DNA of 64,000 nucleotides from Rhodospirillales bacterium (GCA_965207535.1 CBDBMR010000004.1:18788-82787); one strand, 5' to 3'; shown: positions 5,612 through 29,272, numbered from the stretch's first letter. Numbers and translations are program-made. Notes: generated by a model not told the origin, from the letters alone.

Positions 5612-5630
5612 GCGCGTCCGGTAAATGTCT

Positions 5631-9144: not shown

Positions 9145-9245
9145 AATCTTGCTCCTCATGCTCTCGTTGATGACGATGGGTTCCGAACGGCCGGGGCCGG
9201 AACCTCTCTCCAGCCCCTTCCGCCCGCTTTCTTCCCGCTTTTCTC

Positions 9246-9377: not shown

Positions 9378-9493
9378 CGCTATCTCCTTTTAGCGGCGCC
9401 CGGGGATCGGACCGTGAGACCCTCTCTCCCGACCCTCCCGGGCATTCGCCTGGAAACCGCTTTCCTCCACCTCCCGCGCGGGCCCCCGGCGGT

Positions 9494-10513
9494 TTATTCC
9501 CACGCCGCCATGGCCGCGAGCGGGCTCGCCTCGCGCACCATCTCGACCCCCTCGGGGGAGAGCTTCTCGAAGGCGAGCCAGGCGGCGGCCTCCATCTCGT
9601 CGTCGAACACGCCGAGGCACTCCCCGGTCCCGCGCAGATACACCGTGATGGTGGGCGGATAGACCGGCATCCCCCGGAAGTGGGCGGACCGCTCGTGGGA
9701 GCGCTTCGCGCAGGCGGGACAGCGGCAGGCGCCGAACGCCGGCGCGCCGCAATCGGTGCAGGCCGAGCGGGCGCGGCGGGCGGCATACCTTTTTCGGGCC
9801 GCCGCGTTCTTCCGTTCGGGACACTTGCCGGCGTCCTCGATCGCAGCGCATCGCGCACATCGGGACCGGCCGTCTAGGACCGGTGTACCGCACCGGGTGC
9901 AGCAGCCGGCGGCCCTGTGTTCGACGTACTGCCGGCGTTCCCGCTCCTGCCGTTTCTCGCGGCATGGGGCGCAGGTCGTCCCGCCCTCGACGGGCGGGCG
10001 CTTGCCGCACCGGATACAGAGGCCTGCTTCCTTGCGCGCCTTCTGGTTCCGCTTGCTCTTGGCCCGGGCGGACTTTCTCTTTGCAGTTGCATTGGCGCCG
10101 CCGTAAAGCTTCCCGGCAGCCTTGCCAGCCCGGTATTTTGCGCGGTCGGACGCCCGCCTCTTCTCCAGACACCCCTCGCAGGCGGTGCGCGCTGGCGCGG
10201 CCGGGGCCTTGCCGCAGCGAACGCAGATGCCGGCGGCCCGGCGTTCGGCGGCCAGCCGGCGGGCGTGCTTGCGCTGGAAGGCTCTCGCCTTGTCCGGGTC
10301 ACGCCTGGGCAGGGCGGCGGCCCGCAGCCGCGCATCCCGGGTCCGGGATGCGCGATTGCCCTTCTCGGCGCAACCTGCGCAGAGGCGGCGCTCCGGTCCG
10401 GGCGGGTGCACTCCACACCGCGGGCAGAGCCCGGCGGCGGTGCGTTCGGCGGTCCGTTTTCTGAACCGCTCGCGGTCGCGCTGTCGGCGAACTTCGGGAT
10501 CTGCATAGGCCAC
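9494..10513 (-). CDS. Protein with five tandem CxxCG...CxxC zinc-ribbon repeats plus a ~50-aa C-terminal YPP...DDEMEAAAWLAF domain
   Basis: A GTG start at 10513 follows GGGAG with a 7-nt spacer. The five units are CPRCGVHPPGPERRLCAGC, CVRCGKAPAAPARTACEGC, CIRCGKRPPVEGGTTCAPC, CTRCGTPVLDGRSRCARC and CTDCGAPAFGACRCPAC. Each is followed by a Lys/Arg-rich stretch. The tail is homologous to the tail of the recombinase at 32635. Confidence 0.65.
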   Translation of the reverse strand: MAYADPEVRRQRDRERFRKRTAERTAAGLCPRCGVHPPGPERRLCAGCAEKGNRASRTRDARLRAAALPRRDPDKARAFQRKHARRLAAERRAAGICVRCGKAPAAPARTACEGCLEKRRASDRAKYRAGKAAGKLYGGANATAKRKSARAKSKRNQKARKEAGLCIRCGKRPPVEGGTTCAPCREKRQERERRQYVEHRAAGCCTRCGTPVLDGRSRCARCAAIEDAGKCPERKNAAARKRYAARRARSACTDCGAPAFGACRCPACAKRSHERSAHFRGMPVYPPTITVYLRGTGECLGVFDDEMEAAAWLAFEKLSPEGVEMVREASPLAAMAAWE

Positions 10514-10608
10514 GGCCGTACTCCCTGTCGATATCGGATTCGGGATAGAAAAAGGCCAGCCGGCTGCCGACGCCGGTGGGCCGGCCGGACGTCCGATGGG
10601 GAAGGCGC

Positions 10609-10935
10609 TCAGCCGCGTTGCCGGCGGTCGTGCCATAGGGACGTGGCCAGATCCCCCCAGAGCTGTTGGCCGCCCCGGGTGCGAAGCCCGGTGCAGACGA
10701 TGATCTCGGTGCGGGCCGGGCGCAGCTCCCTGACCGCCTTCAGCGTGGCGGTGATCCGCTTCGCCGGGCGTCCCTTTCCCTTCCCCGGCGCCTCGCCGGG
10801 CCAGGGGCGAATATCGCCATCGGCGTGGGCCTTAAAGCGCTCGATCACATATTTTTCGTCGGCGAGGCCGCTGCCGAATAGGTGGACCAGGAACGTTGCC
10901 GCCGTATTGCCGGGAACCGCCATTGCTGCATTCAT
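10609..10935 (-). CDS. Hypothetical backbone protein (108 aa); a paralogous fragment lies at 34071..34256
   Basis: The ATG at 10935 is preceded by GGAGA. MNAAMAVPGNTAATFLVHLFGSGLADEKYVIERFKAH aligns with MQAAIAPRGDARTFLTHFIGGGLEDDRYVVETYRSY. Confidence 0.55.
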   Translation of the reverse strand: MNAAMAVPGNTAATFLVHLFGSGLADEKYVIERFKAHADGDIRPWPGEAPGKGKGRPAKRITATLKAVRELRPARTEIIVCTGLRTRGGQQLWGDLATSLWHDRRQRG

Positions 10936-11163: not shown

Positions 11164-12099
11164 CTATCTAACCGTTTTCTCCGGCGCTTCTTCGATCAGC
11201 TTTCTGAGCAGATTAAGGTGGACTACCAAGTCGTCCTCCTTGGGTAATTGAACCTGTTCCCTATTGTGGTGCAGCACGTCATTTGCAAGCTGCCTAAGTC
11301 GGTGTAACTCAGCCTTTGGGACGGGCAAGTTGGTGCAGCTCTCGATACGAGTATGCAAATTGCCGTCGGATGCCCCGTAGTGCTTGGACAAAGTCTTCTC
11401 CAGAATTGATCTCATGAGCGCGAGCGCGGCGAACGGCACTCCATACACAAATGCCTCTTGTGCTTGCCGCAACAATGTTCGAAGGGATAAAGCCTCAGTT
11501 TCTCCATGGTGGCGGTCGACGTGCCGGGGGATCAATACGAATGGCACCAGGATTCGTCGCCGGATTATGCCTCGTAAATCTAACCCCGCTTGAGAACGCA
11601 GGCGTTCCCAGTACACCACTCCTTCCAATATTTCCTCAACATAGTCTTCCGGAAATGAGCGGGACTCATCGGAGGCCTGCTCATCGGCAAAACTAATTGC
11701 CTCCTCTATCCGATTAGCCTGATATCGAGCATGGGCATCAGCCGCCTCTATCTCCGATTCAAGGCTTGGTTTCGAAGTAAAGAATTTAGTGACGGATTCA
11801 CTACCCAGAAAGTCAGAGAGAGAAACGTTCTCCACCGGAATTGCATACCGTTCTTCAAAGTCTCTCCATTTATTCACAAATTGTGGGTTCTCCGGGCCAG
11901 CAAAGAGTTGGCGTTCCAACCGTTCGTAGCGCCTTAGCCGGGAAGCCACGTCAAGAACTTCGAGGCAAATCCCTTTAACCGGCTCATCGGACTCGGCCAG
12001 CGCCTCGAGTCCAGACGGATCATCGTCAGTGTATTCCTGGAGCTTGAAATACAGGGCCATAAATTTCACAACTAGTTCGTGGTCCTTCTCGACCGCCAT
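11164..12099 (-). CDS. Hypothetical protein with a DUF4145-like (HEPN-related) C-terminal domain
   Basis: Lower-GC gene. The C-terminus AQEAFVYGVPFAALALMRSILEKTLSKHY...LHRLRQLANDVLHH resembles the DUF4145 pattern (helical hairpin, then hxxhRxxGNxxxH). Confidence 0.45.
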   Translation of the reverse strand: MAVEKDHELVVKFMALYFKLQEYTDDDPSGLEALAESDEPVKGICLEVLDVASRLRRYERLERQLFAGPENPQFVNKWRDFEERYAIPVENVSLSDFLGSESVTKFFTSKPSLESEIEAADAHARYQANRIEEAISFADEQASDESRSFPEDYVEEILEGVVYWERLRSQAGLDLRGIIRRRILVPFVLIPRHVDRHHGETEALSLRTLLRQAQEAFVYGVPFAALALMRSILEKTLSKHYGASDGNLHTRIESCTNLPVPKAELHRLRQLANDVLHHNREQVQLPKEDDLVVHLNLLRKLIEEAPEKTVR

Positions 12100-14348: not shown

Positions 14349-17300
14349 TCAAACGGACCTCTTTCGTGCCCTCCAAGGCAAAAGACTCTTTGTGACTCTC
14401 TGTGTGGTGAATGTCTGCTGCAGCGACTTCTCGTTGTCCGATATGGCGCGTTTGAACGCATGCCTCTGCTGTTTTACGAACCGCCGCTTCAAATCTTCTA
14501 AGGAGCCGTTTCCAACTGCATATTGGTCGTAGTCCTGGGACATCCATGTCCTGGCACGCCGGTCGCTACAGGCTATGAACAAACGCCAAAAGGCATGAGC
14601 AGCCTCGGCCGTATCAGCTTCGGCAAACTTCCGAAACCAATGGACGGCGAAGGCCTCTCTTTGGCCCATAATCCAGGAGTCATCATGTATATCCTGATAT
14701 TCGCCTATCGACGGGCCGCTTGGCCATTCCGCATCCCCAGCGATAGTGGGTCGAACGAACATGGGCTGAAGAAAGGCAGCCCGGCGTCGGTGTGCTGGGC
14801 AAGACGAACTTTCGTCTGAAGAAATTCTCTGCCCTAACCAGTCGATCCGGCCGGAACTTCGGGCCGCAACGACGATATCGAGTAAATCTTCGTCGGTTCG
14901 CGCTTCGTCGAGGTCGCATAGTTCATCCAAGACGGATTCGACCGCAGGACAATCCGGCGCCATGAATGGAGCAAATTTCAATCTGTCGATCCCGGTAAGG
15001 CCGATGAACCTCGTGGACTGACACTCTCGCAGGGCACGCCACAAAGGAATTCCACGAGACGGGTCACGTTTCAATACGGCCTCACATAGCCCGACGAAAA
15101 ACCCCTCGGCCAATCGAACTCTCCGGCGAAATTCATCCGTGAGCCGGTCGATGCCATCAAGCCAGCGGTCCAACGCCTCTGGACAGAGGTCGAGAACCTG
15201 ATCGAAGTCATCGGCGTGAAATCGGGTATGAAGAAATTGTGCCCCAGACTGCCGCGCCTGCCCGACGGCATTGATATAGGATTGAATGATCGTTCGTCGG
15301 CGCTCTTCATACTGTTCTGGCCTATTGACCCGTTCAAGGAGGGAACGGATATCATTCCCGTCGTCGCGATCTTCCACGATTTCACCGATCGTGAAATTGT
15401 AGTTCCCGGTGGAAGAGGCCTCATAGTCATGGAAGATATCGAGCCCCGATTCTGGAGCGTCCTTTTGGTATTGAGCCAGCGCGTTGGAAAGCAGATCCAC
15501 AGCAAGCTGTGCTTCATCCGGGAGCCGCGCTTCCCGGGACAGGGCTTCCAGCAACAGGAAGGGGGCGATCCGAGCGGCAAAATCAGAAAATCGGCGACCA
15601 CGGTGCGAGGCAATGATACCTCTTGAACCCATGATGTTTACCATGTGCGGCTGTGAGCACGACCATGACCAGTCTCTTTGATCGAGAGCATGTCCCAAGC
15701 ATTCTGCAGCGTTGGAACCCAGCAGGGCCCACGCTGCTTCAGAGGCGCCGTCTGAATCGGTGGAGAACAGGAGCTCGGAAAGGGCGTCGAACGCAGTTTC
15801 ACTGAGATCCAATTCGTATTCGACAAGGACGCTTGCTAATCGGTTCAACTTCCGCCTGTCGCCACCGCACAAAGCAATCAACTGATCGAGTTCGCTGGCG
15901 GACGGAGAATGGCAGACTCCCCCAAGACCCAGGAAGACGGGATCGATTTCTGAATCCAGAATTTTCGTCACTTGTTCTATAGGTGAGGCGCACTGAATTT
16001 CAGCAATCAGTAGGCCGGTCTGAATCAAGAGTTCGTCATCGTCAGATTCCCCGTGCCCTTGTTTCCTCAAGGTTTGCAGAGCTGCACTTTCTTCGTCCCT
16101 TACCAAGAGCATGACTTCCGGGGCAGCGAGCGCGGAACCAAAACGCTGATCTGGCGTACGTTCTGCAAATTGCCTCAATCGAGCGCGCTCGCAGTTAGCA
16201 AGACAGTCTGGATTGCATCTTGCAAGAGCGAGAGACAGGCGTTTCCATTGATCATCTTCGGACGTACGGTCCCTGCCCGTTGCCGTTTGGCTGAAATCGA
16301 AGCTCTCCGACACTACCGTCAGTTCATCAATGAAGTCTTGGGGAACCTGAAAGCTCGGATCGAGCAAAGCATCCTTTGACTTATTTATCCGACCAAACAT
16401 GGCAAGCGTCTTATCACAAAGCACCCTCGCCACGTGTCTTCGTTCGAGCCGAAAGTAAGAGCGCGCAGGATCGGAGAGATAGTCTCGCTCGTATTCAAAG
16501 ATGTGATCGATCTTGGGATCCATCGTCCAAGCCTCTTGCGCATCTTCGGAATATCCGGTGCGCCAAAGCAGGATGGATGCAATCCGCGCGTTGAGTTTCG
16601 GATGGTGGCCGGCTTCTACGGGAAGTGACCGTATTTCTTGGGATGCCGATCGAAGTCCTGCGGCTGTCTCTTCAGGATCAACGACATTGAGAATGTTCAG
16701 CCAGTACTGGGTTTCCTGTGCTGCCCCGCTACCAACGAGAGCAATTTGAATTGCCCCGTGAACGAAGAACTCGACGGCGTCCTTTAAGGGGCGTCCTTGC
16801 AACAGTTGAGCCGCCGCGACAATCAAATCTTCACCACTGTAGTCGACGATCTCGAAATTGCGGCACGCAATGGCGATCGTACCCGGCTCGGCTACACCTA
16901 TACGCTCCTTCAGGCGTTTGCACCGGCGCGCGTAACGTGAGTTGTCGGTGCGATCTGCTTCGTCCCCCCTCTTCTCGAGAGAGATGCAGTCTAGCCATCT
17001 CGATACGCGTTCCGCGATGGTTGCTGCAACGGCGGGGTCAGCCTTGTCGACCGCAGCTAGTACGTCGATGGCGATGTGCCTTGCAGTCGTTAGCGAATGC
17101 CCGCGGGAGGTTTCGATGACATCGAGCATCGGCGTAACCAGTGCGGGCGCAAGGACTTCAAGGTCGCCAAGATGGCTCTCGGGAACGTTCTGAGAATGAA
17201 GCCAACGAGTGCATAATGTGCCGAGCCATGCCGGTGATTCTGACTCGCTTCGCAGGAGGGCAATGGTCACAGCGGCGCGGAGAATCTCGGCGCGAACGTC

Positions 17301-19016
17301 ATATCCAGCGATGGGATCAAGGAAGTTGTCGAGTATGGTTGCCGGCTGTTCGCCGGGCTTGGCCCTGTCCATCTGAGAGACCAGCGCAAGACCCACGGCA
17401 TGGGAAACGAAATCGGGGTCGAATTCCAGCTCACCGTCCCGGTCGAGGGTGGCGAATATGCCGTCGATAACGCCTGAAACCCGGTGATAAACCTGATCCG
17501 ATGTTTGTATGGCCGAGGCGCTTAAGCTCTCGATGCGTTGACGTGTCGAGCGATTGCTTCCGTCTCTGTAGTCACGTGCCAGTTCCAGCAAGAACTGTCG
17601 CCATTCCGCCTCGCTGAAGGCACCGACCGATGCTTCTTGGATCGTGAATGCGCCGTAGGCCCAGAGAAGGCGATGGACGGTGACCTCTCCAACATCACCC
17701 AACTCCGACCTTAAACGGATGATGAGATCGAACATGCGCGGAATAGCGGCATGGTGAAGCAGCCGATCAGGCAAGTCGCCTCGGGAAAGGCCGGCGCCCT
17801 GCAGTTTCAGGTCCAATTCTCCGCCGGGTGTCAGATCGTAGTTTCCCACGTCGGTCCGATGGAGCGGAGCGATAAGGTTCGAAAGACGATGGAGCCGGTC
17901 CTCAAAAAAAGCGGTGCGCGTCGAAATCAGAGTTTGGACGCGTTGGTGGAAAGGAGCGTCTTCCAGCTGATGAAGGAGGCCGAGCCAATCACGCGAAGGG
18001 AGCTGGTTAATGCCATCGAAAAAGAGAAGGAACACATGGCCTTCATCGGCGGGCCGCGTTAGGAACCGTCCAACCCGTTTCTCCCAGTACAAAACGTCAC
18101 GCACTTCCGAAATATCGTGCAGGTACCGCGCAATCAAATGTAGCGCTTCATTTCCCCCGGAATCCGCGTGGCCAAGGGCTGAGGAGGGGGCGAGCACAAC
18201 TATAGGCAAGCTGTTTTGCCGATATTGCAGCCAATCCAGTGCAGCCCATGTCTTGCCCACACCTTCGGAGCCCACCAACGCCCCAACGGTGCCGTCATCA
18301 GAGCTATCGAGCCAAGAATCCAGGCTATCGATCAGGTTTGATCGGCGCACATGTCGTGCATTCTCGTCGCCGCCGGCCACATTCTGGCGAAACTTAGCCT
18401 GCGCCCTCCGACGCGAAGTCCAGATTTCTCGAAGGCGGCGATGACTGGAGTCTCGTACGGCGTCGTATCCGATCAACCAACTCTGGAGTTCTCTCTCGAT
18501 GAGTTGCAGCGTGGAAGCGTACTCTGGCAGTTCCGATATTCGCTTGAGAAGGGGCCTGTGTTGTTCGCCGAACTCGGTCGAAAAAAATTCCGGGCAGCTG
18601 GCGGCGAGAGCGGCAAGCCTCGGCAAAGGACGCGGCAACCAGTCGATCGAGACTGTGGCGATGCCATTGCTCAGGCCGACCTCGCCCATGGCATCCTGGA
18701 TCTGTTCAGGAACTTCTAGAGTCGTAACCAAGAGCCAAGCTTCGAGATCGGGGTGGCGTTTGCATGCCTGATCGATTTCACCGCGGATGCTTCGCTCGTC
18801 GAGCCTCGAGTTCGACCCGTAGCGGCGGGCCTCGAACACAAGGTATCTTCCTCCAATGCCTGATACACCCCCGTCGCCTCCTCTCTGGTTGCCGGAACGG
18901 GCCTGCCTGAATGGAACCCTCAGCAAGGCACCCAGGGCGAATCCTGCAAGTCGTTCGAGATGCTTCGGATCGGCTTCCAACAGGATCGAACGGAGTTGAT
19001 CGCACAAATCAGGCAT
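14349..19016 (-). CDS. Giant Mrr-like nuclease / STAND P-loop NTPase / long helical C-terminal region protein (Avs-like antiviral STAND candidate), 1,555 aa
   Basis: The ATG at 19016 is preceded by GGGGAG. N-terminus: LERLAGFALGALL...RGGDGGVSG...YLVFEARRYG...AWLLVTTLEVPEQ, which follows Mrr-cat logic (DGG-D ... E-x-K/R ... hhhTT). Walker A GSEGVGKTW lies at 18249-18272, and the Walker B-like motif is HVFLLFFDGINQL. More than 1,000 further residues carry no motif I recognise. Confidence 0.7.
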   Translation of the reverse strand: MPDLCDQLRSILLEADPKHLERLAGFALGALLRVPFRQARSGNQRGGDGGVSGIGGRYLVFEARRYGSNSRLDERSIRGEIDQACKRHPDLEAWLLVTTLEVPEQIQDAMGEVGLSNGIATVSIDWLPRPLPRLAALAASCPEFFSTEFGEQHRPLLKRISELPEYASTLQLIERELQSWLIGYDAVRDSSHRRLREIWTSRRRAQAKFRQNVAGGDENARHVRRSNLIDSLDSWLDSSDDGTVGALVGSEGVGKTWAALDWLQYRQNSLPIVVLAPSSALGHADSGGNEALHLIARYLHDISEVRDVLYWEKRVGRFLTRPADEGHVFLLFFDGINQLPSRDWLGLLHQLEDAPFHQRVQTLISTRTAFFEDRLHRLSNLIAPLHRTDVGNYDLTPGGELDLKLQGAGLSRGDLPDRLLHHAAIPRMFDLIIRLRSELGDVGEVTVHRLLWAYGAFTIQEASVGAFSEAEWRQFLLELARDYRDGSNRSTRQRIESLSASAIQTSDQVYHRVSGVIDGIFATLDRDGELEFDPDFVSHAVGLALVSQMDRAKPGEQPATILDNFLDPIAGYDVRAEILRAAVTIALLRSESESPAWLGTLCTRWLHSQNVPESHLGDLEVLAPALVTPMLDVIETSRGHSLTTARHIAIDVLAAVDKADPAVAATIAERVSRWLDCISLEKRGDEADRTDNSRYARRCKRLKERIGVAEPGTIAIACRNFEIVDYSGEDLIVAAAQLLQGRPLKDAVEFFVHGAIQIALVGSGAAQETQYWLNILNVVDPEETAAGLRSASQEIRSLPVEAGHHPKLNARIASILLWRTGYSEDAQEAWTMDPKIDHIFEYERDYLSDPARSYFRLERRHVARVLCDKTLAMFGRINKSKDALLDPSFQVPQDFIDELTVVSESFDFSQTATGRDRTSEDDQWKRLSLALARCNPDCLANCERARLRQFAERTPDQRFGSALAAPEVMLLVRDEESAALQTLRKQGHGESDDDELLIQTGLLIAEIQCASPIEQVTKILDSEIDPVFLGLGGVCHSPSASELDQLIALCGGDRRKLNRLASVLVEYELDLSETAFDALSELLFSTDSDGASEAAWALLGSNAAECLGHALDQRDWSWSCSQPHMVNIMGSRGIIASHRGRRFSDFAARIAPFLLLEALSREARLPDEAQLAVDLLSNALAQYQKDAPESGLDIFHDYEASSTGNYNFTIGEIVEDRDDGNDIRSLLERVNRPEQYEERRRTIIQSYINAVGQARQSGAQFLHTRFHADDFDQVLDLCPEALDRWLDGIDRLTDEFRRRVRLAEGFFVGLCEAVLKRDPSRGIPLWRALRECQSTRFIGLTGIDRLKFAPFMAPDCPAVESVLDELCDLDEARTDEDLLDIVVAARSSGRIDWLGQRISSDESSSCPAHRRRAAFLQPMFVRPTIAGDAEWPSGPSIGEYQDIHDDSWIMGQREAFAVHWFRKFAEADTAEAAHAFWRLFIACSDRRARTWMSQDYDQYAVGNGSLEDLKRRFVKQQRHAFKRAISDNEKSLQQTFTTQRVTKSLLPWRARKRSV

Positions 19017-19415
19017 ATGGACGCTCCCCTGCATACCGATCATTCCGGGTTGGCAGCTCGATCGTGTGCCAAACGTACCTGGAAATGCAGCGTCCTCGCT
19101 CGGATGCTGTTCCTATACGGTCTGTGTCCTATAACCGAAAATCCACAGCGCGGTGTCAAGACACGCTCAAGAGGCAACACGCGCGAGCCCTAGATCCAGG
19201 CAGTCATTAGGAACCTGTTCTAAGTACATAGTCACTAATCCCAAAGCCCGAACGATGTCGCCATCATCAGACAAGGTGACCGGACTTCGGTTATTCTGCA
19301 TTTATTTCTCCTGCTTGTGGTCAAATGATATTGATCTCTGTTTGTCTGGCGAGGAACTGGGGGTAGCAAGTGTGACGTGAGACTTAACTTCTCTCTAGTC
19401 ATGGGGAGAGACCGG

Positions 19416-19544
19416 TTCCGGGCGATAGTGTAGGAAGCAGGAGGTGACGGATCAATGCAGGGAGGCGCGCGCACCGGCAGCGTGACTTGCCCGGCCAGCA
19501 TCCTTTACGGAAGGCGTAAAACACAGTACGGTCGGCAAGCATGA
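19416..19544 (+). promoter_or_regulatory. Conserved leader motif copy 2 plus a 29-codon uORF overlapping the higB start (ATGA)
   Basis: Motif as at 6655..6703. The uORF runs from ATG 19455 to TGA 19542-19544 (MQGGARTGSVTCPASILYGRRKTQYGRQA), and its stop codon overlaps the higB ATG at 19541. Confidence 0.5.
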
Positions 19545-19819
19545 TTCGAAGCTTCAAGGATCGGGATACGCGCCGCTTCTTCGAGGGGCGGCGCGTCGCG
19601 GCATTCCAGGGCTTCGCCGGTCAGGCCGTGCGCCGGCTGATTTTGCTGGATGGCGCGGAGACGCTTGGCGACCTCGCCGCGCTGCCGAGCAACCGGCTCG
19701 AAGCGTTGCGCGGCGACCGCGCCGGTCAGCACAGCATTCGGATCAACGCGCAATGGCGTGTCTGCTTTCGTTGGACGGACGAAGGGCCGTGCGACGTGGA
19801 GATAGTGGATTATCACTGA
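19541..19819 (+). CDS. higB: HigB-family toxin (RelE/ParE superfamily, 'plasmid maintenance system killer')
   Basis: MIRSFKDRDTRRFFEG...LPSNRLEALRGDRAGQHSIRINAQWRVCFRWTDEGPCDVEIVDYH is the canonical HigB pattern. Confidence 0.85.
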   Translation: MIRSFKDRDTRRFFEGRRVAAFQGFAGQAVRRLILLDGAETLGDLAALPSNRLEALRGDRAGQHSIRINAQWRVCFRWTDEGPCDVEIVDYH

Positions 19820-19837
19820 GGGAGGAGGAGATTTGAC

Positions 19838-20143
19838 ATGAACGCCAGGAACGGAATGAGGCCGGTGCATCCCGGCGAAATCCTGCGCGGCGAGCTTGAT
19901 GAACTCGGGCTGTCGGCCAACGCGCTGTCGAAGGCGCTGGGCGTGCCGGTGAACCGGGTGACGATGATCCTGAACGGCCAGCGGGGCGTGAGCGCGGACA
20001 CGGCGCTGCGGCTGGCGCGGTATTTCGGGACGACGCCGCAACTTTGGCTGAATTTGCAGAAGACGTGGGAGCTTCGCCAAGCGGAGATCGCGGCGGGCCG
20101 GGAGATCGCGAAACGCGTGACGCCCCGGCAGTCGGCGGCGTAG
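19838..20143 (+). CDS. higA: HigA-family antitoxin (XRE HTH)
   Basis: SD GGAGGAGGAG upstream. MRPVHPGEILRGELDELGLSANALSKALGVPVNRVTMILNGQRGVSADTALRLARYFGTTPQLWLNLQ. Confidence 0.85.
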   Translation: MNARNGMRPVHPGEILRGELDELGLSANALSKALGVPVNRVTMILNGQRGVSADTALRLARYFGTTPQLWLNLQKTWELRQAEIAAGREIAKRVTPRQSAA

Positions 20144-20155
20144 CGGAGCGGCCTG

Positions 20156-22936
20156 ATGCGCCTGTCGTGGAACGAGGTTCGCGCCCGCGCCGCCGTCTTC
20201 GCCGAGGACTGGAAGGACGCGGCCTACGAAAAGGGCGAGACGCAGAGCTTCTACAACGCCTTCTTCGACGTGTTCGGAGTGCAGCGGCGGAACGTCGCCC
20301 GCTACGAGCAGCACGTCGCCAAGCTGGACAACCATTCGGGCTTCATCGACCTGTTCTGGCCGGGCGTGCTGCTCGTCGAACAGAAGAGCGCCGGGCGCGA
20401 TCTCCGCAAAGCCTACGAACAGGCCGGGGAGTATTTCGACGCGCTGCCGGAACGCGAGCGCCCGCGCTTCATCCTGGTGAGCGACTTCCGGACCTTCGAG
20501 CTGCACGATCTCGACGAGCGGGAGACCGCCGCCTTCCCGCTCGCCGACCTGCCCGCCCATGTCGAGTCGTTCGGCTTCATCCTCGGGGTGCAGCGCCGCA
20601 CATTCCGCGACCAGCACCCGGCGAACATCGAGGCCGCCGAACTGGTCGGGCGGCTGCACGACGCGCTCGACGCGGCCGGCTACCAGGGCCACGATCTCGA
20701 ACGCTTCCTGGTGCGGATCGTCTTCTGCCTGTTCGCCGACGACACCGGCATTTTCGAGCCGCGCGACATCTTCCTCGACTTCATCGAGACGCGGACGAGC
20801 GAGGACGGGGCCGACCTCGGGCCGTGGCTCGCGCAACTGTTCGAGGTGCTCGACACGCCGGAGGACGGGCGCGCGGCGACCCTCGACGAAGACCTCGCCC
20901 GGTTCCCCTACGTCAACGGCGCGCTGTTCGACGAACCGCTCAGGATTCCATCCTTCGACGCAGGGATGCGCGGGGCGTTGCTCGACGCCTGCCGTTTCGA
21001 CTGGTCGAACATCTCGCCGGCGATCTTCGGCGCGCTCTTTCAGTCGGTCATGGACCCGGCGGAGCGCCGCGCCCAGGGGGCGCACTACACGACCGAGAAG
21101 AACATCCTCAAGGTGATCGAGCCCCTGTTCATGGACGACCTGCGGGCCGAATTCGAACGCCTGAAGGCGCGGCGCGACAACCGCCGCCGGCCCGACCTGC
21201 TGCGCTTCCAGGAACGGCTCGGCGCACTCCGCTTCCTCGACCCGGCCTGCGGCTGCGGCAACTTTCTCATCATCGCCTACCGGGAATTGCGGCTGCTCGA
21301 AATCGAGGTGCTGAAGGAGGTGTACGCCAGCGGCCAGCTCGACGCCCTGGCGGAGACGCTGTCGCTGGTGGACGTAGATCAGTTCTACGGCATCGAGCTT
21401 GGCGAGTTCCCGGCCCGCATCGCGGAGACGGCGCTGTGGATGATGGACCACATCATGAACAACCGGCTGAGCCTTGCGCTCGGTGAAACCTTCGTCCGCA
21501 TTCCGCTCGAGAAGTCGCCCCACATCGTCCACGGCGACGCGCTGGAAACCGACTGGGCCGAACTGCTGCCGCCGGGCGATTGCTCGTTCGTGCTGGGCAA
21601 TCCGCCGTTCGTGGGCTCCAAGTACCAGACGGCGGAACAGCGCGCCCAGGTGCGCGAAATTGCCGCGCTCGGCAAGAGCGGCGGCACGCTCGATTACGTC
21701 GCCGCGTGGTTCATCAAGGCGGGCGAGTATGTGAAGGGCGGCGGGGCCCGGATCGGCTTTGTCGCCACCAACTCGATCACCCAGGGCGAACAGGTGGCGC
21801 AGCTATGGCCGGTCCTGTTCGAGCGCTGCAAGCTGGAGATCGCCTTCGCCCACCGGACCTTCGCCTGGGGATCGGACGCGCGCGGCAAGGCGCATGTGCA
21901 TGTGGTCATTCTCGGCCTCGACCGGCGGGAGGCCGCGCGGGCGGAGAAGCGGCTGTTCAGCTATCCCGACATCAACGGCGACCCGGAGGAAAGCCGTCAC
22001 GCGGCGCTGTCGCCGTACCTGTTCGATGCGGGCGGGTTGTCCGACCCGCATTTGGTGGTGCGGGAGGAAAGCGGGCCGATCAATGGGATGTCACAGCTTC
22101 TCACCGGCTCACAGCCAATCGACGATGGGCAATACATTTTCGACGCGGCGGAACGCGCCACGTTTTTGGAGGCGGAGCCGGACGCCGCGCCGTGGCTTCG
22201 GCCTTTCATCGGAGCGCGGGAATACTTGCAGGGCGCCGAGCGGTGGATTTTGGCGCTGCACGACGCGCCGCCCGAAGTGCTGTCGCGGCTGCCCCAAGTG
22301 CGGGAGCGGATCGCTGCCGTTCGGGCGTTTCGGCGGGAAAGCAAACGCAAATCAACCTTGAAGCTGGCCGACACACCGACGCTCTGGCAGGTCAACGTGC
22401 TTCCCGACGCGCCGTTTCTGGTGATTCCGGAAGTCAGTTCGGAACGCCGGGAGTACGCGCCCATCGGCTGGCTGGAGCCGCCGGTCATTCCGAGCAATCT
22501 CGTGCGGATTCTGCAAAACGCGAGCTTGGCCAATTTCGCGCTGCTCACGTCGTCCATGCACATGGCGTGGCTGCGCCATATCGGCGGACGACTCAAGAGC
22601 GACTACCGCTACTCCATCGGCCTCGTCTACAACACCTTTCCGCTGCCGCCCAAGGACTCGAACCTGTCAAAATTGGGGCCGCTCGCCCAGGCCGTGCTGG
22701 ACGCCCGCGTCGCTCATCCGGGCGCGACGCTCGCCGACCTCTACGACCCGGACCTGATGCCGCCGAACCTGCGCCGGGCGCATCAGGCGCTCGACCGCGC
22801 CGTGGACCGGCTCTACCGGCGCTCGGGGTTCGCGTCCGAGCGCGAGCGCGTCGAACATCTGTTCATGCTGTATGAGAAGATGCGGGCGCCCTTGGAAATC
22901 GGTATGAAGAGGAAACCACGCCGACGGCGAAAGTGA
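20156..22936 (+). CDS. MmeI-family type IIL/IIG restriction-modification enzyme (N-terminal PD-ExK nuclease fused to an N6-adenine methyltransferase and a target-recognition domain)
   Basis: Nuclease motif: FIDLFWPGVLLVEQKSAG, giving D65-X9-E75-X-K77. Helical spacer: ERFLVRIVFCLFADDTGIF. SAM motif I: FLDPACGCGNFLI. Catalytic motif IV: LGNPPFVG. At 926 aa it has the single-polypeptide size typical of this family. The start lies 12 nt after the higA stop codon. Confidence 0.8.
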   Translation: MRLSWNEVRARAAVFAEDWKDAAYEKGETQSFYNAFFDVFGVQRRNVARYEQHVAKLDNHSGFIDLFWPGVLLVEQKSAGRDLRKAYEQAGEYFDALPERERPRFILVSDFRTFELHDLDERETAAFPLADLPAHVESFGFILGVQRRTFRDQHPANIEAAELVGRLHDALDAAGYQGHDLERFLVRIVFCLFADDTGIFEPRDIFLDFIETRTSEDGADLGPWLAQLFEVLDTPEDGRAATLDEDLARFPYVNGALFDEPLRIPSFDAGMRGALLDACRFDWSNISPAIFGALFQSVMDPAERRAQGAHYTTEKNILKVIEPLFMDDLRAEFERLKARRDNRRRPDLLRFQERLGALRFLDPACGCGNFLIIAYRELRLLEIEVLKEVYASGQLDALAETLSLVDVDQFYGIELGEFPARIAETALWMMDHIMNNRLSLALGETFVRIPLEKSPHIVHGDALETDWAELLPPGDCSFVLGNPPFVGSKYQTAEQRAQVREIAALGKSGGTLDYVAAWFIKAGEYVKGGGARIGFVATNSITQGEQVAQLWPVLFERCKLEIAFAHRTFAWGSDARGKAHVHVVILGLDRREAARAEKRLFSYPDINGDPEESRHAALSPYLFDAGGLSDPHLVVREESGPINGMSQLLTGSQPIDDGQYIFDAAERATFLEAEPDAAPWLRPFIGAREYLQGAERWILALHDAPPEVLSRLPQVRERIAAVRAFRRESKRKSTLKLADTPTLWQVNVLPDAPFLVIPEVSSERREYAPIGWLEPPVIPSNLVRILQNASLANFALLTSSMHMAWLRHIGGRLKSDYRYSIGLVYNTFPLPPKDSNLSKLGPLAQAVLDARVAHPGATLADLYDPDLMPPNLRRAHQALDRAVDRLYRRSGFASERERVEHLFMLYEKMRAPLEIGMKRKPRRRRK

Positions 22937-22990
22937 TGACTTTTTTGCGATGGTCTTGGTTTGGCTTGGCGGATCACGAGAACGAATCCG

Positions 22991-24091
22991 ATGGATAAAA
23001 GCTATCTCTGGCCGAGTACGCTTCTTTTGCCGGTACGACCCCCAAAGATCGTATACCTAGATTTGAATCATTGGATCACTCTGGCGCAAATCGCCTCTGG
23101 CAGCCGTGATGGAGCAAGAGATAAGGAAATCCTTACCTTTTGCTTTACTTCTGCCGACAATGGGGACGCTATTTTTCCGATTTCACTAAGCATTTTTACG
23201 GAAATACTTAAGACAAAGAACCGTCAGATACGCCTAAATCTCCGTAAAGTCATTGAAAGGCTGAGCCAGTACATGGTTGTGACAAACCGGTTCGTAGTCG
23301 CAACTCATGAAATTGAAGCTCTCCTGGACAAAAAGGTCGGCCCTAATCCTGTACCGATCAACACGATGGATTACCTGGATTGGGGCGTATTTTGGGCTTT
23401 GGGTATTGATGGTGGCATTAGGGTCAGGTCAGAAGCCGGCGAAGACGTTACAGCCACAGTTCGTCAATCGTTTACCGGTGGCCCGAAAGCGTTCGATAAG
23501 ATGGTGAATAATGCGGGATTGGAGCTGAATCGACAGGTGCTCGATGGTCCACCGCCGGACGAAGAGCTTGAATTTCGACGACTAGGTTACAACCCCGAAG
23601 CGATACTTGAGTTGTATGATCGTGAAGCTACATACGAAGCGGAGTGGGCACGTCTACTCGACAAAAACTCGAAATGGAGGCGTGGTCGCCTGAGCGATCT
23701 TGTTTCAGCCCGAGAAGTAGCTTTTCATATCAACAGCATTCTCAAGAGAGGATGTAATGAGCGCAATATTGACTCTCTCCAATGTCTGTTTTCTTCAGTC
23801 GAAGATACACGCAATGCGTTCAATTCCATGCCCAGCTTCGATACCTCGGTGACGTTAAAGACATTTATTCACCGAAATGGCAGCCATCGTTGGAGCAATA
23901 ACGATATTCATGACATTCATGCTTTAGCGGTAACGTTGCCGTATTGCGATATTGTTGTGACTGATCGTGCAATGGCATCACAGGCGATACAATCCAAATT
24001 GGCTGAAAAATTGAGTACGGTAGTGCTTAGCAAGCTTTCCGATCTTCCCAAACATGGCGTAATTCCGGCGTTCACTCCCCTGGGCCTATGA
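22991..24091 (+). CDS. Hypothetical protein with possible split PIN-like termini (366 aa)
   Basis: Lower-GC gene. The N-terminus PKIVYLDLNHWITLA resembles PIN strand 1 with its Asp. The C-terminus NDIHDIHALAVTLPYCDIVVTDRAMA resembles the last PIN acidic residue. About 300 residues in between are unassigned. The start is uncertain (ATG at 22991 or TTG at 22961). Confidence 0.4.
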   Translation: MDKSYLWPSTLLLPVRPPKIVYLDLNHWITLAQIASGSRDGARDKEILTFCFTSADNGDAIFPISLSIFTEILKTKNRQIRLNLRKVIERLSQYMVVTNRFVVATHEIEALLDKKVGPNPVPINTMDYLDWGVFWALGIDGGIRVRSEAGEDVTATVRQSFTGGPKAFDKMVNNAGLELNRQVLDGPPPDEELEFRRLGYNPEAILELYDREATYEAEWARLLDKNSKWRRGRLSDLVSAREVAFHINSILKRGCNERNIDSLQCLFSSVEDTRNAFNSMPSFDTSVTLKTFIHRNGSHRWSNNDIHDIHALAVTLPYCDIVVTDRAMASQAIQSKLAEKLSTVVLSKLSDLPKHGVIPAFTPLGL

Positions 24092-25490
24092 TGCGGGGTC
24101 GTGGGCGCCGCGCCCCGTTAGGCTAAGCAAGGAGAGTGACCATGGGTGAGTACGTTGGCTTTGATGTTTCGAAGGAAGAGACAGCATTTTGCGTGAAGGA
24201 CGGTGCAGGAGAGATTTTGGCGCAAGGCAAGGCGGAGACCGACCCTCGGGCGTTGTTTGAGGTGTTGAAGGAGCATTGTCTGTGTCCGGATCGGATTGTT
24301 CTGGAGACCGGGACACTGTCGGGCTGGCTGGCACGGAGTCTGGACGAGATGGGGATTGCGGTGGAAGTGATCGATGCCCGCCAGGCCCATGCGGTGATGC
24401 GTCTTCAACACAACAAGACCGATGCCAAGGACGCCGAGCTTCTGGCGGAGATCGCGCGCACCGGCTTCTGCCGCCCTGTATCGGTGAAGAGCGAGTTGGC
24501 CCAGGAGAGTCGGGTTCTGCTCAAGGCTCGGTCTCACCTGGTGCGCCAGCGCCGCGATACTCACAACACGATCCGGGGTCTTCTTGCCTCGTTGGGGATC
24601 CGTTTTCCCAAGGGCACGAGCAAGCTGCTCCGCGGAGTGCGCGCGCAGCTCGAGGACCGTCCCGAGCTACGCCCGGCGATTGCGCCGTTGCTGTCCTCGC
24701 TCACGGCGCTGGACAGCACGATTGCGGAGCTGGATGAGGCGGTCGCTGCGCGCGTCAAGGACGATCCGGCCTGCCGCCTGCTGATGACCGTGCCCGGAGT
24801 CGGACCGCTCACGGCGCTGGCCTATGTGAGTACCATCGGCGACGCCGGGCGCTTCGCCCGATCGCGCAGCTTGGGCGCTTATCTCGGGCTGACCTCCAGA
24901 CGTTGGCAATCGGGCGAGATGGATTACAGCGGGTGCATCTCCAAGCACGGCGACGCGATGCTGCGCAGCTTATTGTACGAGGCCGCCAACAGCCTGCTTG
25001 TGGTGGTGCGCCGGGCCCATCCGCTCAAGGACTGGGCGCGGCGGATCAAAAAGCGGACCAGCCACAAGAAGGCCTGCGTGGCCCTGGCGCGCAAGCTTGC
25101 GGTGATCCTCCATCGCATGTTGATCACTGGCGAGCCGTTCCGCTGGCCGGCCCGAGAGATTCAGGCGGCATGAGTGAGAGAACGGACTGCGTAGACGACG
25201 GTAACGAGCACGAGGAGACAACATAGTTCCGCACGAGCGGAAAGGCGCGTCCCCGCCGGGACGTCGGCCGAGGCCATCCCGTTTTATGTGTTGCAAGGCG
25301 GCTCAGGCCGCCAACAATGCGTCCTCTGACCCTGGGAGGCCGAAGCCAAAGGGCACCATCATGAAGCAAGCCAGCCAGAGCGCCGGCAAAGACTTCGTAG
25401 ACAACCCTGTACCCGGCGGCGGCAAGCCCGGAGGAGTTGACCCGAACGCCGGAATTAGACAACACATTTAGAGCGATGGGGGTTATGACG
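24092..25490 (+). mobile_element. IS110-family insertion sequence (IS1111-like layout: short 5' end, long 3' non-coding end); boundaries approximate
   Basis: The high-GC block begins right after the stop codon of the low-GC upstream gene and ends where the low-GC sequence resumes, near 25480-25500. Only 44 nt precede the transposase ATG, while about 300 nt follow its stop codon. Confidence 0.6.
24136..25173 (+). CDS. IS110-family transposase, full length (345 aa)
   Basis: SD AAGGAGAG upstream. N-terminus YVGFDVSKEETAFCV carries the first Asp of the DEDD motif. C-terminus: LMTVPGVGPLTALAYVSTIGDAGRFARSRSLGAYLGLTSRRWQSGEMDYSGCISKHGDAMLRSLLYEAA...KKACVALARKLAVILHRML. Confidence 0.9.
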   Translation: MTMGEYVGFDVSKEETAFCVKDGAGEILAQGKAETDPRALFEVLKEHCLCPDRIVLETGTLSGWLARSLDEMGIAVEVIDARQAHAVMRLQHNKTDAKDAELLAEIARTGFCRPVSVKSELAQESRVLLKARSHLVRQRRDTHNTIRGLLASLGIRFPKGTSKLLRGVRAQLEDRPELRPAIAPLLSSLTALDSTIAELDEAVAARVKDDPACRLLMTVPGVGPLTALAYVSTIGDAGRFARSRSLGAYLGLTSRRWQSGEMDYSGCISKHGDAMLRSLLYEAANSLLVVVRRAHPLKDWARRIKKRTSHKKACVALARKLAVILHRMLITGEPFRWPAREIQAA

Positions 25491-26886: not shown

Positions 26887-28095
26887 TCAAAGCTGGCGGT
26901 CCCGGTCCAACCGAGGAGGTGGGCGGGACGATGTCCGGCCGCATGGGAGGCGCATCGCCTCGGCGATCAAGCTCCCGACCTTCTCCGCCGCCTCGACCAG
27001 ATGGCCGTCGTCAAGGTGGGCGTATCCCGCCGTGGTCTCGTACCGCCGGTGACCGAGCAGCTTTCCGACCAGCGCCAGGTTCTCACCCGCCATGACGGCC
27101 TGGCTGGCCGCCGTGTGGCGCAGGTCGTGCAGGCGCAGGCGGCCAAGCCCCGCATCTTCACAGACCGTCCGCCAGCAGTTCGTGAGAACCCAGATTCCCC
27201 GGCCTTCGGCATGGCGCGGAAACAGGAACGCATCCGGGTCGCCAGGACCGGGCAGCACCTCGATGAGCGCCCGCGCGGCCTCGCCGAGCGGCACGGCGCG
27301 CGGGCCGGTTTTCGAATCTTCGAGGTTCAACGCATCCGCGCTGACATTGCGCCAGCGCAGATTCAGAACTTCGCTGCGGCGGCACCCGGTCAGGGCCAGC
27401 AGCCGGATCGCAGCGACGGCCTCGGGCCAGCGGTCCTCATGGGCGTCGAGCGCACGCCCGAGTCGCGTCAGTTCATCGGTATCGAGGAACCGCGCGACCT
27501 TCTTCCTCGGGTTCTTCCGGATACCCAGGCAGGGGTTGGTGTCCCGCTCGCGCATTCCCCACTCCTCGGCCCGGAACATCATCGCGCGCAGGATCTCGAG
27601 CGCGCGGTTGGCCGCGCCGGGTTTGTCCCTGCTCGCCGCGTCGAACCACGCGGCCACGTCCTCCAGACCGATTTGGTCGAGAGGCATCCTGCCGAACGTG
27701 GGCAGGATGCGGGCTTTCAGGTAGATGCGCACGGTCCTGCGCCCGGAGGGCTTCCAGTGCGGATCGCAGCGCCGCAGATACTCGTCTGAAAACTCCCGCA
27801 GCGTCGGGGTCTGCTTGTCTTTCTGGATGTCGTCCGCGGGATTATCGCCCGCGCGGATGCGGGCGAGCATGTCGCGGGCGCGGCGGCGGGCCTCCACGAG
27901 CTCCATCTCTCCATGCCGGGCGATGACGATGCGGCGGCTCCGCCCCTCGATGCGGGCCTGCACGATCCAGATCTTGCTGCCCGAGGGATGGATGCGAAGG
28001 CCGAAGCCGGGCAAAGCCTTGTCGAACAGGATGGTGTCCTTCGGGCCGGGCCGGCTCGCGCGGGCCAGCTTCGCGGTAAGATCAACCCTTGGCAT
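26887..28095 (-). CDS. P4-type tyrosine integrase (DUF4102 arm-binding N-domain), downstream member of an overlapping pair
   Basis: The ATG at 28095 is preceded by GGGAGAG. N-terminus: FDKALPGFGLRIHPSGSKIWIVQARIEGRSRRIVIARHGEM. Catalytic residues: LTGCRRSE, LHDLRHTAAS, LGHRRYETTAGYAHL. Confidence 0.85.
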   Translation of the reverse strand: MPRVDLTAKLARASRPGPKDTILFDKALPGFGLRIHPSGSKIWIVQARIEGRSRRIVIARHGEMELVEARRRARDMLARIRAGDNPADDIQKDKQTPTLREFSDEYLRRCDPHWKPSGRRTVRIYLKARILPTFGRMPLDQIGLEDVAAWFDAASRDKPGAANRALEILRAMMFRAEEWGMRERDTNPCLGIRKNPRKKVARFLDTDELTRLGRALDAHEDRWPEAVAAIRLLALTGCRRSEVLNLRWRNVSADALNLEDSKTGPRAVPLGEAARALIEVLPGPGDPDAFLFPRHAEGRGIWVLTNCWRTVCEDAGLGRLRLHDLRHTAASQAVMAGENLALVGKLLGHRRYETTAGYAHLDDGHLVEAAEKVGSLIAEAMRLPCGRTSSRPPPRLDRDRQL

Positions 28096-29272
28096 GATCG
28101 CACTCTCCCTTGTTCTTCGCACCGTTTCCGGCCAGGGCCGCATGGATGCGGTTCGATACCCGGTCGGCGGCGTCCGTGACCGACCGGTCCGACAGATGGA
28201 CGTATCGCTCGGTCGTCTCGACCAGCGAATGGCCCAGCAGCTTGGCGATGGTCACCATGTCCAGGCCGTTCATGGCCGCGATCGAAGCCCAGCTATGGCG
28301 CAAATCGTGCAGCCGCAGACCGGGCAGTCCGGCCTCGGCGCGGATGCGGTTCCAATGGGACGCGATGTTGTCGATGGGCCGCGTCGGCGGACGGACGGGA
28401 AACAGATACGGGCAATCCTCGCCATAGCGCGGGATGGCGTCGATCACGGCCCGCGCCGCGCTCGACAGCCAGACCGTACGCGGACCCGACTTCGAGTCGG
28501 GAAGGAATATCCGCTTGCCCTTGATCCAGTCCCATTCGAGCGAGGCGATTTCGCCGAAGCGGCAGCCGGTCAGCATCAGCAAACGGATGACGGCGACGGC
28601 CTGGGGGCAATAGAACTCGTCGCGGGTGAGCACGGCGTTAAGCCGGGCCATCTCCTCGGCGTCGAGGAACCGCTCCTTCGGCTCCATCCTGTATCGTTTG
28701 GCGTTCTTGCACGGATTGGAGTTGTGCCGGCGGTATCCCCAAAGCTCGGCCATGCGCATCATCATGGACAGCACCGGCATGGCGCGGTTGGCGACGCCGG
28801 GCCGCCCGGCCATGGACGCGAACCAGTCCTTGACGTGCTCGGACGCGATGGCGTCCACGGTCAGATGACCGAAGGCGGGCAGGATGTCCTTGCGGACCAT
28901 GTAGGCGTTGGTCTCCTGGGTCCGGGGCTTCCAGTGCCGGGCCTGCCGGTCGAGGAATTCCTCCGCGAAGGCATCCATCGGATGCCCCGGCGTCCTGGGG
29001 CCGCCGCCGTTCTTCACCGTTTCGGTGAAGGCGGCAATCAGCCTGCGGGCTTCGGCGCGCGCCTCCGGGACCGTCATGGTCTCGGCATTGCCCACGGTGG
29101 CGTAGCGCCTGCGGCCGCGCAACGTGGTCTCCAGCGTGAAGCTGCGCGCGCCGCTCGGGAAGACACGGAGCCTCAGGCCGGGCACCGCGTCGTCGCGGAC
29201 GTCGAAGCGCTTGTCGCGGGGCTTGGCGGCGCGGACGCGCCGGGCGAAGGTGGATTTGGTCTGCTCGCTCAT
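28082..29272 (-). CDS. P4-type tyrosine integrase (DUF4102 N-domain), upstream member of the overlapping pair
   Basis: SD GAGGAG upstream. N-terminus: VRDDAVPGLRLRVFPSGARSFTLETTLRGRRRYATVGNAETM. Catalytic residues: LTGCRFGE, LHDLRHSWAS, LGHSLVETTERYVHL. Its stop codon at 28082-28084 lies 14 nt inside the next integrase ORF. Confidence 0.85.
   Translation of the reverse strand: MSEQTKSTFARRVRAAKPRDKRFDVRDDAVPGLRLRVFPSGARSFTLETTLRGRRRYATVGNAETMTVPEARAEARRLIAAFTETVKNGGGPRTPGHPMDAFAEEFLDRQARHWKPRTQETNAYMVRKDILPAFGHLTVDAIASEHVKDWFASMAGRPGVANRAMPVLSMMMRMAELWGYRRHNSNPCKNAKRYRMEPKERFLDAEEMARLNAVLTRDEFYCPQAVAVIRLLMLTGCRFGEIASLEWDWIKGKRIFLPDSKSGPRTVWLSSAARAVIDAIPRYGEDCPYLFPVRPPTRPIDNIASHWNRIRAEAGLPGLRLHDLRHSWASIAAMNGLDMVTIAKLLGHSLVETTERYVHLSDRSVTDAADRVSNRIHAALAGNGAKNKGECDHAKG

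Follow-up and report, generated by a model that had tools for sequence, protein, structure and literature searches.

Positions 19416-22936 of a 64,000-nt stretch of Rhodospirillales bacterium DNA (hereafter the window) carry a higB-higA toxin-antitoxin (TA) pair followed at once, on the same strand, by a gene for an MmeI-family restriction-modification (R-M) enzyme. On balance, and by a narrow judgement, this locus is taken to be a compact, horizontally mobile defence cassette in which an autoregulated higB-higA operon has the MmeI-family gene directly behind it. The best reading of the sequence is that the MmeI-family gene is promoterless and mobile and rides behind higBA, and we infer a single higB-higA-MmeI transcript, addiction and regulation. 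The cassette, with or without an intervening mrr gene, is recurrent and tight but facultative in one rapidly spreading clade; its component families are well known, while their combination is undescribed in the literature searched, in which no paper on a HigBA-MmeI module was found.

The regulation, stability and host-to-host movement of MmeI-type genes are poorly understood. If true, the reading favoured here would provide a concrete, testable instance in which a defence gene owes its promoter, its regulation and its stability to a TA module, together with a tractable setting for studying how one defence gene passes between phyla in a host-associated community. Its practical predictions are a one-strand N6-methyladenine (m6A) motif of the NNCGAG type and the sequence of a HigA operator.

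Organization of the locus

The features of the locus are as follows.

19416-19500, plus strand: truncated 3' tail (about 45-85 nt) of a repeated non-coding element, from blastn and alignments; a full copy lies at 6483-6700
19455-19544, plus strand: 29-codon upstream open reading frame ("uORF") from the list of open reading frames (ORFs), judged not to be a gene
19504-19520, no strand assigned: palindrome TTTACG-GAAGG-CGTAAA, putative HigA operator, overlapping a -35-like hexamer; conserved half-sites
19527-19532, plus strand: -10-like box TACGGT, conserved in relatives as TAYRGT or TAGAGT
19541-19819, plus strand: higB, GraT-type mRNA-interferase toxin of the RelE superfamily, 92 aa, ending in DYH (PF05015; PDB 6F8S_B, 4MCT_B)
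19820-19830, plus strand: strong Shine-Dalgarno sequence GGGAGGAGGAG ahead of higA, read from the sequence
19838-20143, plus strand: higA, Xre-type helix-turn-helix (HTH) antitoxin and autorepressor, 101 aa (TIGR02607, PF01381, PDB 3TRB)
20145-20148, plus strand: GGAG, Shine-Dalgarno sequence of the MmeI-family gene, 7 nt before its ATG, read from the sequence
20156-22936, plus strand: MmeI-family type IIL (IIG) R-M gene, intact, 926 aa (five Pfam domains, PADLOC, PDB 5HR4)

The three genes higB, higA and the MmeI-family gene are all intact and co-oriented. A previous sequence-only reading had described them as one tightly packed apparent operon, and its coordinates, gene identities and spacings are borne out by the ORF list, the sequence and the profile searches: the gap between higB and higA is 18 nt and holds GGGAGGAGGAG, and the gap between higA and the MmeI-family gene is 12 nt and does contain the Shine-Dalgarno sequence claimed for it (GGAG at 20145-20148). 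In the sequence, a Shine-Dalgarno motif precedes higA and the MmeI-family gene, and none is seen before higB. A terminator and a separate promoter between higA and the R-M gene had been named as grounds for giving up the operon; neither was called. More specifically, a simple consensus scan called no terminator-like or sigma-70-like site between higB and the MmeI-family gene, and no terminator is possible between higA and the MmeI-family gene because that gap is only 12 nt. The three genes also form a compositionally coherent block, with 63-69 % GC; the flanks have 47-58 %, the values next to the block being 54 % on its upstream side and 47 % on its downstream side.

The MmeI-family enzyme and its predicted site

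Enzymes of the MmeI type combine cutting and protection in one protein and modify only one DNA strand. Five Pfam families (PF20464, PF20465, PF20473, PF20466 and PF20467) match in this order along the window protein with E = 5e-45 to 3e-83, and represent an N-terminal nuclease, a helical spacer, a gamma-class N6-adenine methyltransferase, a target-recognition domain (TRD) and a C-terminal domain. A phmmer comparison with MmeI (PDB 5HR4) returned E = 5e-271 and placed query residues 1-913 on MmeI residues 1-906, and the PADLOC model REase_MTase_IIG covers residues 2-911. The motifs listed in the sequence-only reading are all present in the translation and align with those of MmeI, namely the nuclease motif D65-X9-E75-X-K77, the S-adenosylmethionine (SAM) motif DPACGCGNF and the catalytic motif GNPPFVG (NPPF). 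Searches with Pfam, NCBIfam and PADLOC found no methyltransferase domain in the neighbouring products (the 1564-aa and 376-aa ORFs, HigB, HigA and an IS110 transposase). In its single five-domain polypeptide, its motifs and its lack of a separate methyltransferase gene nearby, the enzyme resembles the described MmeI family (PMC2731913, 5HR4). A BREX PglX methyltransferase, which would be accompanied by PglZ, BrxC and BrxL, was considered and rejected. With the NCBIfam BREX-6 MTaseX model the protein reaches 17.7 bits, far below the cut-off of 900; it contains a nuclease domain of its own; and Pfam, NCBIfam and PADLOC detect no BREX components in the neighbouring ORFs.

The specificity residues of the TRD are E759, N781, L782, K814, D816 and R818 (query residue = MmeI residue + 8). 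According to the rules of Morgan and Luyten (PMC2731914), K-x-D specifies G as the sixth base, L aligned with A774, combined with R aligned with R810, specifies G as the fourth, and E and N, as in MmeI, specify C as the third. Because the TRD residues can be read with these rules, the recognition site is predicted to be NNCGAG, like that of NmeAIII (GCCGAG), with m6A at the A.

The HigB and HigA proteins

The assignment of higB and higA in the sequence-only reading is upheld by profile matches above cut-off and by structural relatives. HigB matches PF05015 (1.4e-13; 51.6 bits, cut-off 27), has its nearest relative in the GraT-type toxin of PDB 6F8S_B, a putative killer protein (3e-25), matches Proteus HigB (PDB 4MCT_B) at 2e-6, and has the conserved C-terminal VDYH. 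HigA matches the equivalog model TIGR02607 (1.4e-27, 95.3 bits against a cut-off of 47.7) as well as PF01381; its PDB matches are 3TRB at 1.5e-31 and, at about 1e-23, 6F8H/6F8S and 7CSV/6JPI (GraA and Pseudomonas HigA). An identical protein in GenBank, from a Rhodospirillales metagenome-assembled genome (MAG), is named HigA family antitoxin. No higBA model is present among the PADLOC defence models.

The pair is thereby a HigBA module of the GraTA-like kind, with a RelE-fold toxin bearing DYH, an Xre-HTH antitoxin, a toxin-first bicistron and a putative palindromic operator in the promoter, and like GraTA and Pseudomonas HigBA (6F8S, 6F8H, 6JPI; PMC6987408) it belongs to a widely mobile type of module that usually stands alone. 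It differs from them in having a 2.8-kb R-M gene (in relatives also mrr) 12 nt after higA and co-oriented with it. Because the R-M gene is appended in this way, the TA promoter probably drives it as a cargo gene.

Spread of the MmeI-family gene

One genome per GTDB species was scanned for relatives, which gave at least 549 loci; the best 80 (73-86 % protein identity) are numbered L001-L080. Relatives of the MmeI-family protein run to thousands, and the top 120 clusters are 82-100 % identical. The 80 loci span Alpha- and Gammaproteobacteria, Binatia, Acidobacteriota, Gemmatimonadota, Nitrospirales, Thermodesulfobacteriota, Chloroflexota, Cyanobacteria, Rhodothermales, Latescibacterota and Spirochaetia. 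A sponge source is indicated by many record titles (for example Ca. Synechococcus spongiarum, Poriferihabitaceae and Porisulfidus), and the remaining MAGs, judging from their bin names, are presumably of sponge origin as well. At the nucleotide level the gene is about 66-88 % identical across at least 10 bacterial phyla, mostly in sponge-associated MAGs, and a clade this uniform (73-86 % identity across many phyla) is unlike the MmeI family at large.

In 80/80 loci nucleotide homology to the window starts 0-13 nt before the MmeI ATG, so that the gene is not accompanied by a promoter region, and breaks off about 40 nt short of the stop codon. Two MmeI copies occur in some MAGs (L021/L042, L035/L073), and L018 has a tandem pair (5002-7754 and 7985-10737). 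As elsewhere in the family the TRD varies: a segment of about 350 nt (window 22090-22436) is swapped in L039, L054, L068, L073 and L074 and cannot be aligned in several relatives. This distribution suggests massive inter-phylum transfer of the single MmeI gene. Phage are rejected as the vehicle, since only 5 IMG/VR contigs carry a relative (54-64 % identity) and none of these falls in the tight clade. A look-up of contigs encoding the window's own MmeI protein, or P0002, returned none.

Linkage to higBA among relatives

All six frames of the 80 loci, with 5-kb flanks on each side, were searched with profile hidden Markov models for HigA and HigB. A HigA-like gene or remnant is found in 23 loci, and in 22 of these it lies no more than 1.6 kb upstream of the MmeI gene. 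The hits are concentrated by position, with 17 in the first 500 nt upstream against 4 (from two genes) in about 16 other 500-nt bins, or about 0.2 per bin. They fall into three HigA lineages, T1, T2 and T3, which are about 33 % identical to one another; all are PF05015 plus HTH pairs, and each lineage has its own palindrome and -10-like box just before higB. The window type, T1, occurs in L001, L002, L006 and L081, as higA only in L007 and L009, and as fragments in L028 and L016. T2 occurs in L003, L004, L011, L013, L017, L029, L040, L057, L038 and L074, with frame-shifted remnants in L005, L012, L032, L039 and L047. T3 occurs in L046, L060 and L061; in the latter two loci the pair is divergent from the MmeI gene and about 100 nt away.

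Pairwise blastn comparisons delimit a shared block, set between unrelated flanks, whose left edge lies about 35-40 nt before higB and whose right edge is the 3' end of the MmeI gene, and the T2 block with unrelated flanks recurs in Alpha- and Gammaproteobacteria, Gemmatimonadota and Rhodothermales. Divergence from the window is parallel in the two parts of the block, higBA and MmeI being respectively 94 and 91 % identical in L081, 87 and 85 % in L001 and 80 and 83 % in L002. On the same strand, the gap measures 12-16 nt for window-type loci and, for most T2 loci, about 30-130 nt; the direct higA-MmeI arrangement is also present in L103 (15-nt gap), L007 and L095.

In four loci (L001, L006, L009 and L096) the two parts are separated by a gene for a 309-aa Mrr nuclease (PF14338 plus PF04471), with a gap of 16 nt before it and 3-4 nt after it. 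Mrr is a type IV, methyl-dependent nuclease. Its gene abuts the MmeI start with the same 3-4-nt gap in at least 9 loci (L001 at 4068-4997, L006, L009, L014, L015, L016, L022, L065 and L096 at 4321-5241), five of which carry Mrr alone before the MmeI gene; the window has no Mrr. C-terminal Mrr remnants fused to other ORFs are also present in L028 and L059.

The linkage is therefore conserved in at least 22 of the 80 related genomes as well as in metagenome contigs, where the sequence-only reading had made its absence from every relative a reason for rejection. That reading's remark that the arrangement is not a standard one is likewise sustained: Morgan et al. (2009; PMC2731913), who examined 20 characterised genes of the MmeI family, reported no conserved neighbour, unlike in the present clade, which repeatedly has higBA, with or without mrr, directly upstream. 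Nor is higBA a general feature of MmeI genes: 11 annotated plasmid relatives (38-69 % identity) have no higBA but other neighbours, in one case VbhA/Fic at some 600 nt upstream.

The region upstream of higB

The sequence-only reading had placed the 29-codon uORF at the head of the operon, and this part of it fails. The 9 kb around the uORF is overlapped by 109 ORFs of at least 25 aa, about 12 per kb, which puts an ORF of 29 codons at chance level, and the ATGA overlap with higB (uORF TGA at 19542-19544, higB ATG at 19541-19543) exists because higB codon 2 begins with A. Neither frame nor start is conserved. More specifically, the frame is shifted by a 4-nt deletion in L081, the closest relative (94 % nt identity here), L001 has ACG in place of the ATG, and the ORF that starts at the homologous ATG elsewhere, in a comparison that included L006, L011 and L039, has 33, 73, 123 or 150 aa. 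No Pfam match was found for the uORF. A leader peptide is excluded on the same grounds, given a chance-level ORF whose frame and start codon are lost even at 94 % nt identity. The AGGAGG (19439-19444) and the ATG (19455) that make up the apparent uORF come from the tail of the repeated element, and the uORF is a chance ORF lying over this tail and the promoter/operator, probably upstream of the transcription start.

Window-type higBA modules share homology only from about 40 nt before higB onwards. Within this short region, the half-sites of TTTACG-N5-CGTAAA stand equally far from the higB ATG in each of about 17 window-type higBA loci, with a variable spacer and variable flanks, and the motif has a single match in the window (19504-19520). 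TACGGT follows TTTACG at a distance of 17 nt and leaves 8 nt to the higB ATG, a position also kept in about 17 related loci; as a -10 box it is a candidate, the simple consensus promoter scan having made no call there. The nearest antitoxins that have been characterised, GraA and PaHigA, repress their own operons by binding to palindromes in the promoters (PMC6987408). The palindrome and the -10-like box are probably the operator and promoter of higBA. Because the -10-like box ends 8 nt before the ATG, the higB mRNA appears to be leaderless or nearly so. In these two respects the module is unlike GraTA/HigBA, whose operator is TTAAC GTTAA rather than the putative TTTACG-N5-CGTAAA and whose higB does not share the apparent lack of a leader.

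A proposed mechanism

If the cassette reading is correct, transcription from the higBA promoter would begin roughly 0-2 nt ahead of the higB start codon; higB would be leaderless and poorly translated, and higA and the MmeI-family gene would be served by their Shine-Dalgarno sequences. Transcription would read through from the higBA promoter into the MmeI-family gene, and HigA (or HigA-HigB) bound at TTTACG-N5-CGTAAA would therefore set the level of MmeI expression. The TA pair would give the cassette post-segregational stability; a fused R-M enzyme, by our own reasoning, would not easily provide addiction by itself because cutting and protection decay together. The enzyme would place its methyl group on one strand of an NNCGAG-type site and cleave the DNA roughly 20 nt from it, as expected of the MmeI family (about 20/18 nt).

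A bolder version, which is offered tentatively, is that a promoterless MmeI-type gene spreads between phyla in sponge microbiomes by docking behind HigBA operons. The TA module would then serve both as an expression platform, through a HigA-operated leaderless promoter, and as an addiction device; Mrr would sometimes be added to give a three-nuclease operon, and in the strongest form HigB would be a functional second arm of the defence, set free once the R-M enzyme or transcription in the host is inhibited. Such a modular, TA-driven restriction cassette would be new to the MmeI family. A general role of higBA as a platform for defence cargo is rejected, as stand-alone window-type loci are followed by ordinary genes (an oxidoreductase, esterase, rhodanese or enolase-like gene) or by transposase fragments.

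Limits of the linkage and alternative explanations

Several observations weigh against the cassette reading. Approximately 58 of the 80 MmeI loci have no HigA-like gene. Conversely, an identical HigA in L094 lies beside unrelated genes, with an L081-like left flank and no MmeI gene, and 7 of the 10 closest T1 HigA relatives from metagenomes with downstream sequence also lack an MmeI gene; the other three comprise L103 and L096 (Mrr between) with intact MmeI genes, and L098 with Mrr and MmeI remnants. A metagenome scan of about 45 more distant HigA loci found no MmeI gene beside them. The higA-MmeI junction varies, with 12, 15, 25-120 or about 240 nt (L081) or a whole mrr gene between the two. 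Linked copies are decaying: the toxin is lost in L007 and L009, and MmeI ORFs are truncated in L007, L022, L046 and L066, those of L007 and L046 being pseudogenes. Some of the MmeI loci without higBA have other TA genes within 700 nt upstream (PIN ×3, VapB, DUF433/DUF5615, an HI1420-type antidote, a ribbon-helix-helix antitoxin and HepT), others have housekeeping genes, and because other TA families also precede MmeI copies the signal may partly reflect TA-rich islands. A weak internal promoter may lie inside higA, the promoter scan being a crude consensus for a 65 % GC alphaproteobacterium. Finally, the counts across loci are not phylogenetically independent. The MmeI protein tree, a UPGMA (unweighted pair group) tree on p-distances, is star-like with the T2-linked copies scattered through it, and because of this shape it only weakly resolves ancestral linkage with loss from repeated assembly for T2.

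Much of this also speaks for a first alternative, that higBA and the MmeI-family gene are passive neighbours: independent mobile genes in an integrase-borne, TA-rich island, with a weak MmeI promoter inside higA and no coupling. Each is often found without the other, other TA types lie upstream of other MmeI copies, and the junction is highly variable. The content of the island around the locus, with a HicAB pair, an IS110 transposase and a P4-type integrase among stretches that differ widely in GC, fits the passive-neighbour explanation. Sponge microbiomes are moreover rich in R-M and TA genes (PMC5099237; see also PMC5649159). Should this explanation be right, the locus would be no more than an ordinary part of a defence island. 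This explanation is nevertheless considered doubtful, though it carries real weight. HigA hits are concentrated in the first 500 nt upstream and nearly absent elsewhere in the 5-kb flanks, the association is seen in three separate HigBA lineages with very short same-strand gaps, the block moves as a unit across phyla, and the MmeI gene comes without a conserved promoter region. The positional concentration, the three lineages and the short gaps argue against pure coincidence; functional coupling is not proven by them.

A second alternative is that HigA acts like a C protein, as a controller that delays or caps MmeI expression after transfer, with HigB incidental or being lost. The layout is that of C-protein R-M operons, in which a small HTH repressor gene lies immediately upstream and co-oriented and feedback-limited restriction is expected, and here too a palindrome stands in front. 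Toxin-less higA-MmeI (L007) and higA-mrr-MmeI (L009) loci point the same way, as does the T3 lineage, in which a palindrome lies within the region of about 100 nt that the pair shares with the MmeI gene. This intergenic region (L060 4899-5001, L061 4903-5001) contains the perfect palindrome GTGTAACAT-N-ATGTTACAC, and because of its position a HigA operator could also sit in the MmeI promoter. The explanation is nonetheless improbable. HigA belongs to the HigA equivalog and has TA antitoxins as its best structural relatives, higB is intact with DYH in most linked copies, higBA stands alone as a module elsewhere, and L007 reflects decay rather than design because its MmeI gene is a pseudogene. 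Unlike C-protein operons, the locus encodes a fused R-M enzyme, which has less need for delayed restriction, so that a delay between methylase and nuclease is unneeded. A true C-protein-controlled R-M system is excluded, since the HTH protein is a HigA equivalog paired with a toxin; no C-box-like tandem palindromes were seen, the only palindrome being the single one upstream of higB.

The third alternative takes its model from PrrC and EcoprrI, in which an anticodon nuclease sits in a type Ic R-M operon and is held in check by the R-M complex. HigB would here be a guard or back-up, a second-line RNase that is freed once the R-M enzyme or transcription in the host is shut down by a phage; the recurrent physical linkage of an RNA-cleaving toxin to an R-M enzyme, the entry of Mrr into the same operon as a third nuclease in 8 or more loci and the capacity of TA modules to act as abortive-infection systems favour this, but it is very improbable, given that HigB, unlike PrrC, has a dedicated antitoxin, that no HigB-MmeI or HigA-MmeI interaction is indicated, that the linkage is facultative with higBA outside the PADLOC defence models, and that nothing here separates it from simple co-carriage. 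For both the controller and the guard, which are possible, the support is architectural.

Integrons and defence islands offer a further comparison. In chromosomal integrons, such as the Vibrio superintegron with its higBA cassettes, and in defence islands, where TA genes are enriched, TA modules bring their own promoter ahead of promoterless mobile genes and probably stabilise them and help in their expression. The locus resembles these in its co-localisation with R-M systems, transposases and an integrase, and differs in that the partner is one specific R-M lineage and not a series of arbitrary cassettes. An integron cassette proper is excluded, as an attC site (about 60-140 nt) cannot fit the 12-nt and 24-nt gaps; no integron integrase was found, the only recombinases nearby being the IS110 transposase and the P4-type integrase.

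The repeated element

The truncated element at 19416-19500 marks the left edge of the homology between the window and L081. It is part of a repeated non-coding element of about 220-270 nt that is 80-91 % identical between unrelated genomes. The element begins GGTGTGAGAAC and ends GGAAGCAGGAGGTAAC..CAATG, the end consisting of a GCTTCC...GGAAGC hairpin followed by AGGAGG and ATG, and it precedes both T1 and T2 modules (L001, L003, L004, L006, L011, L039 and L099). The copies located by blastn and alignments are listed below.

window, 6483-6700 (full)
L003, 3851-4129
L001, 3000-3268
L004, 3979-4216
L006, 3096-3358
L011, 3850-4299
L039, 4048-4262
L099, 3242-3462

Rfam gave no match above noise in window 18900-24200, window 6300-6900 or L003, no compensatory pairs were found in the alignment fold, and the z-score of the minimum free energy is only -2.2. 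The element could be a small RNA, a recombination or insertion site, or a mobile promoter or leader.

Surroundings of the locus

The genes around the locus look like a mosaic integrative island with GC contents of 47-72 %, and include the following.

5092-5611: HicB-like/HicA TA pair
6977-7909: YspA-type SLOG protein
11164-12099: DUF4145 protein
14349-19043, minus strand: 1564-aa ORF (55-59 % GC) before higB, no family match
22961-24091, plus strand: 376-aa ORF (47 % GC), 24 nt after the MmeI stop codon, no family match
24136-25173: IS110-family transposase
26887-28143: P4-type tyrosine integrase

No tRNA gene was found in the 64-kb window. The 1564-aa and 376-aa ORFs have no Pfam, NCBIfam or PADLOC hit and no homologue in any of the 80 loci. 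In L081, a 72-aa ORF between higA and MmeI (5783-6001) resembles the N-terminal part of another HigA-type antitoxin, and a DDE transposase (8828-10576) lies near the 3' end of the MmeI gene, with the displaced MmeI tail at 10691-10786. The 1564-aa gene also lies beside higB in L095, which apparently represents the same organism in another sample.

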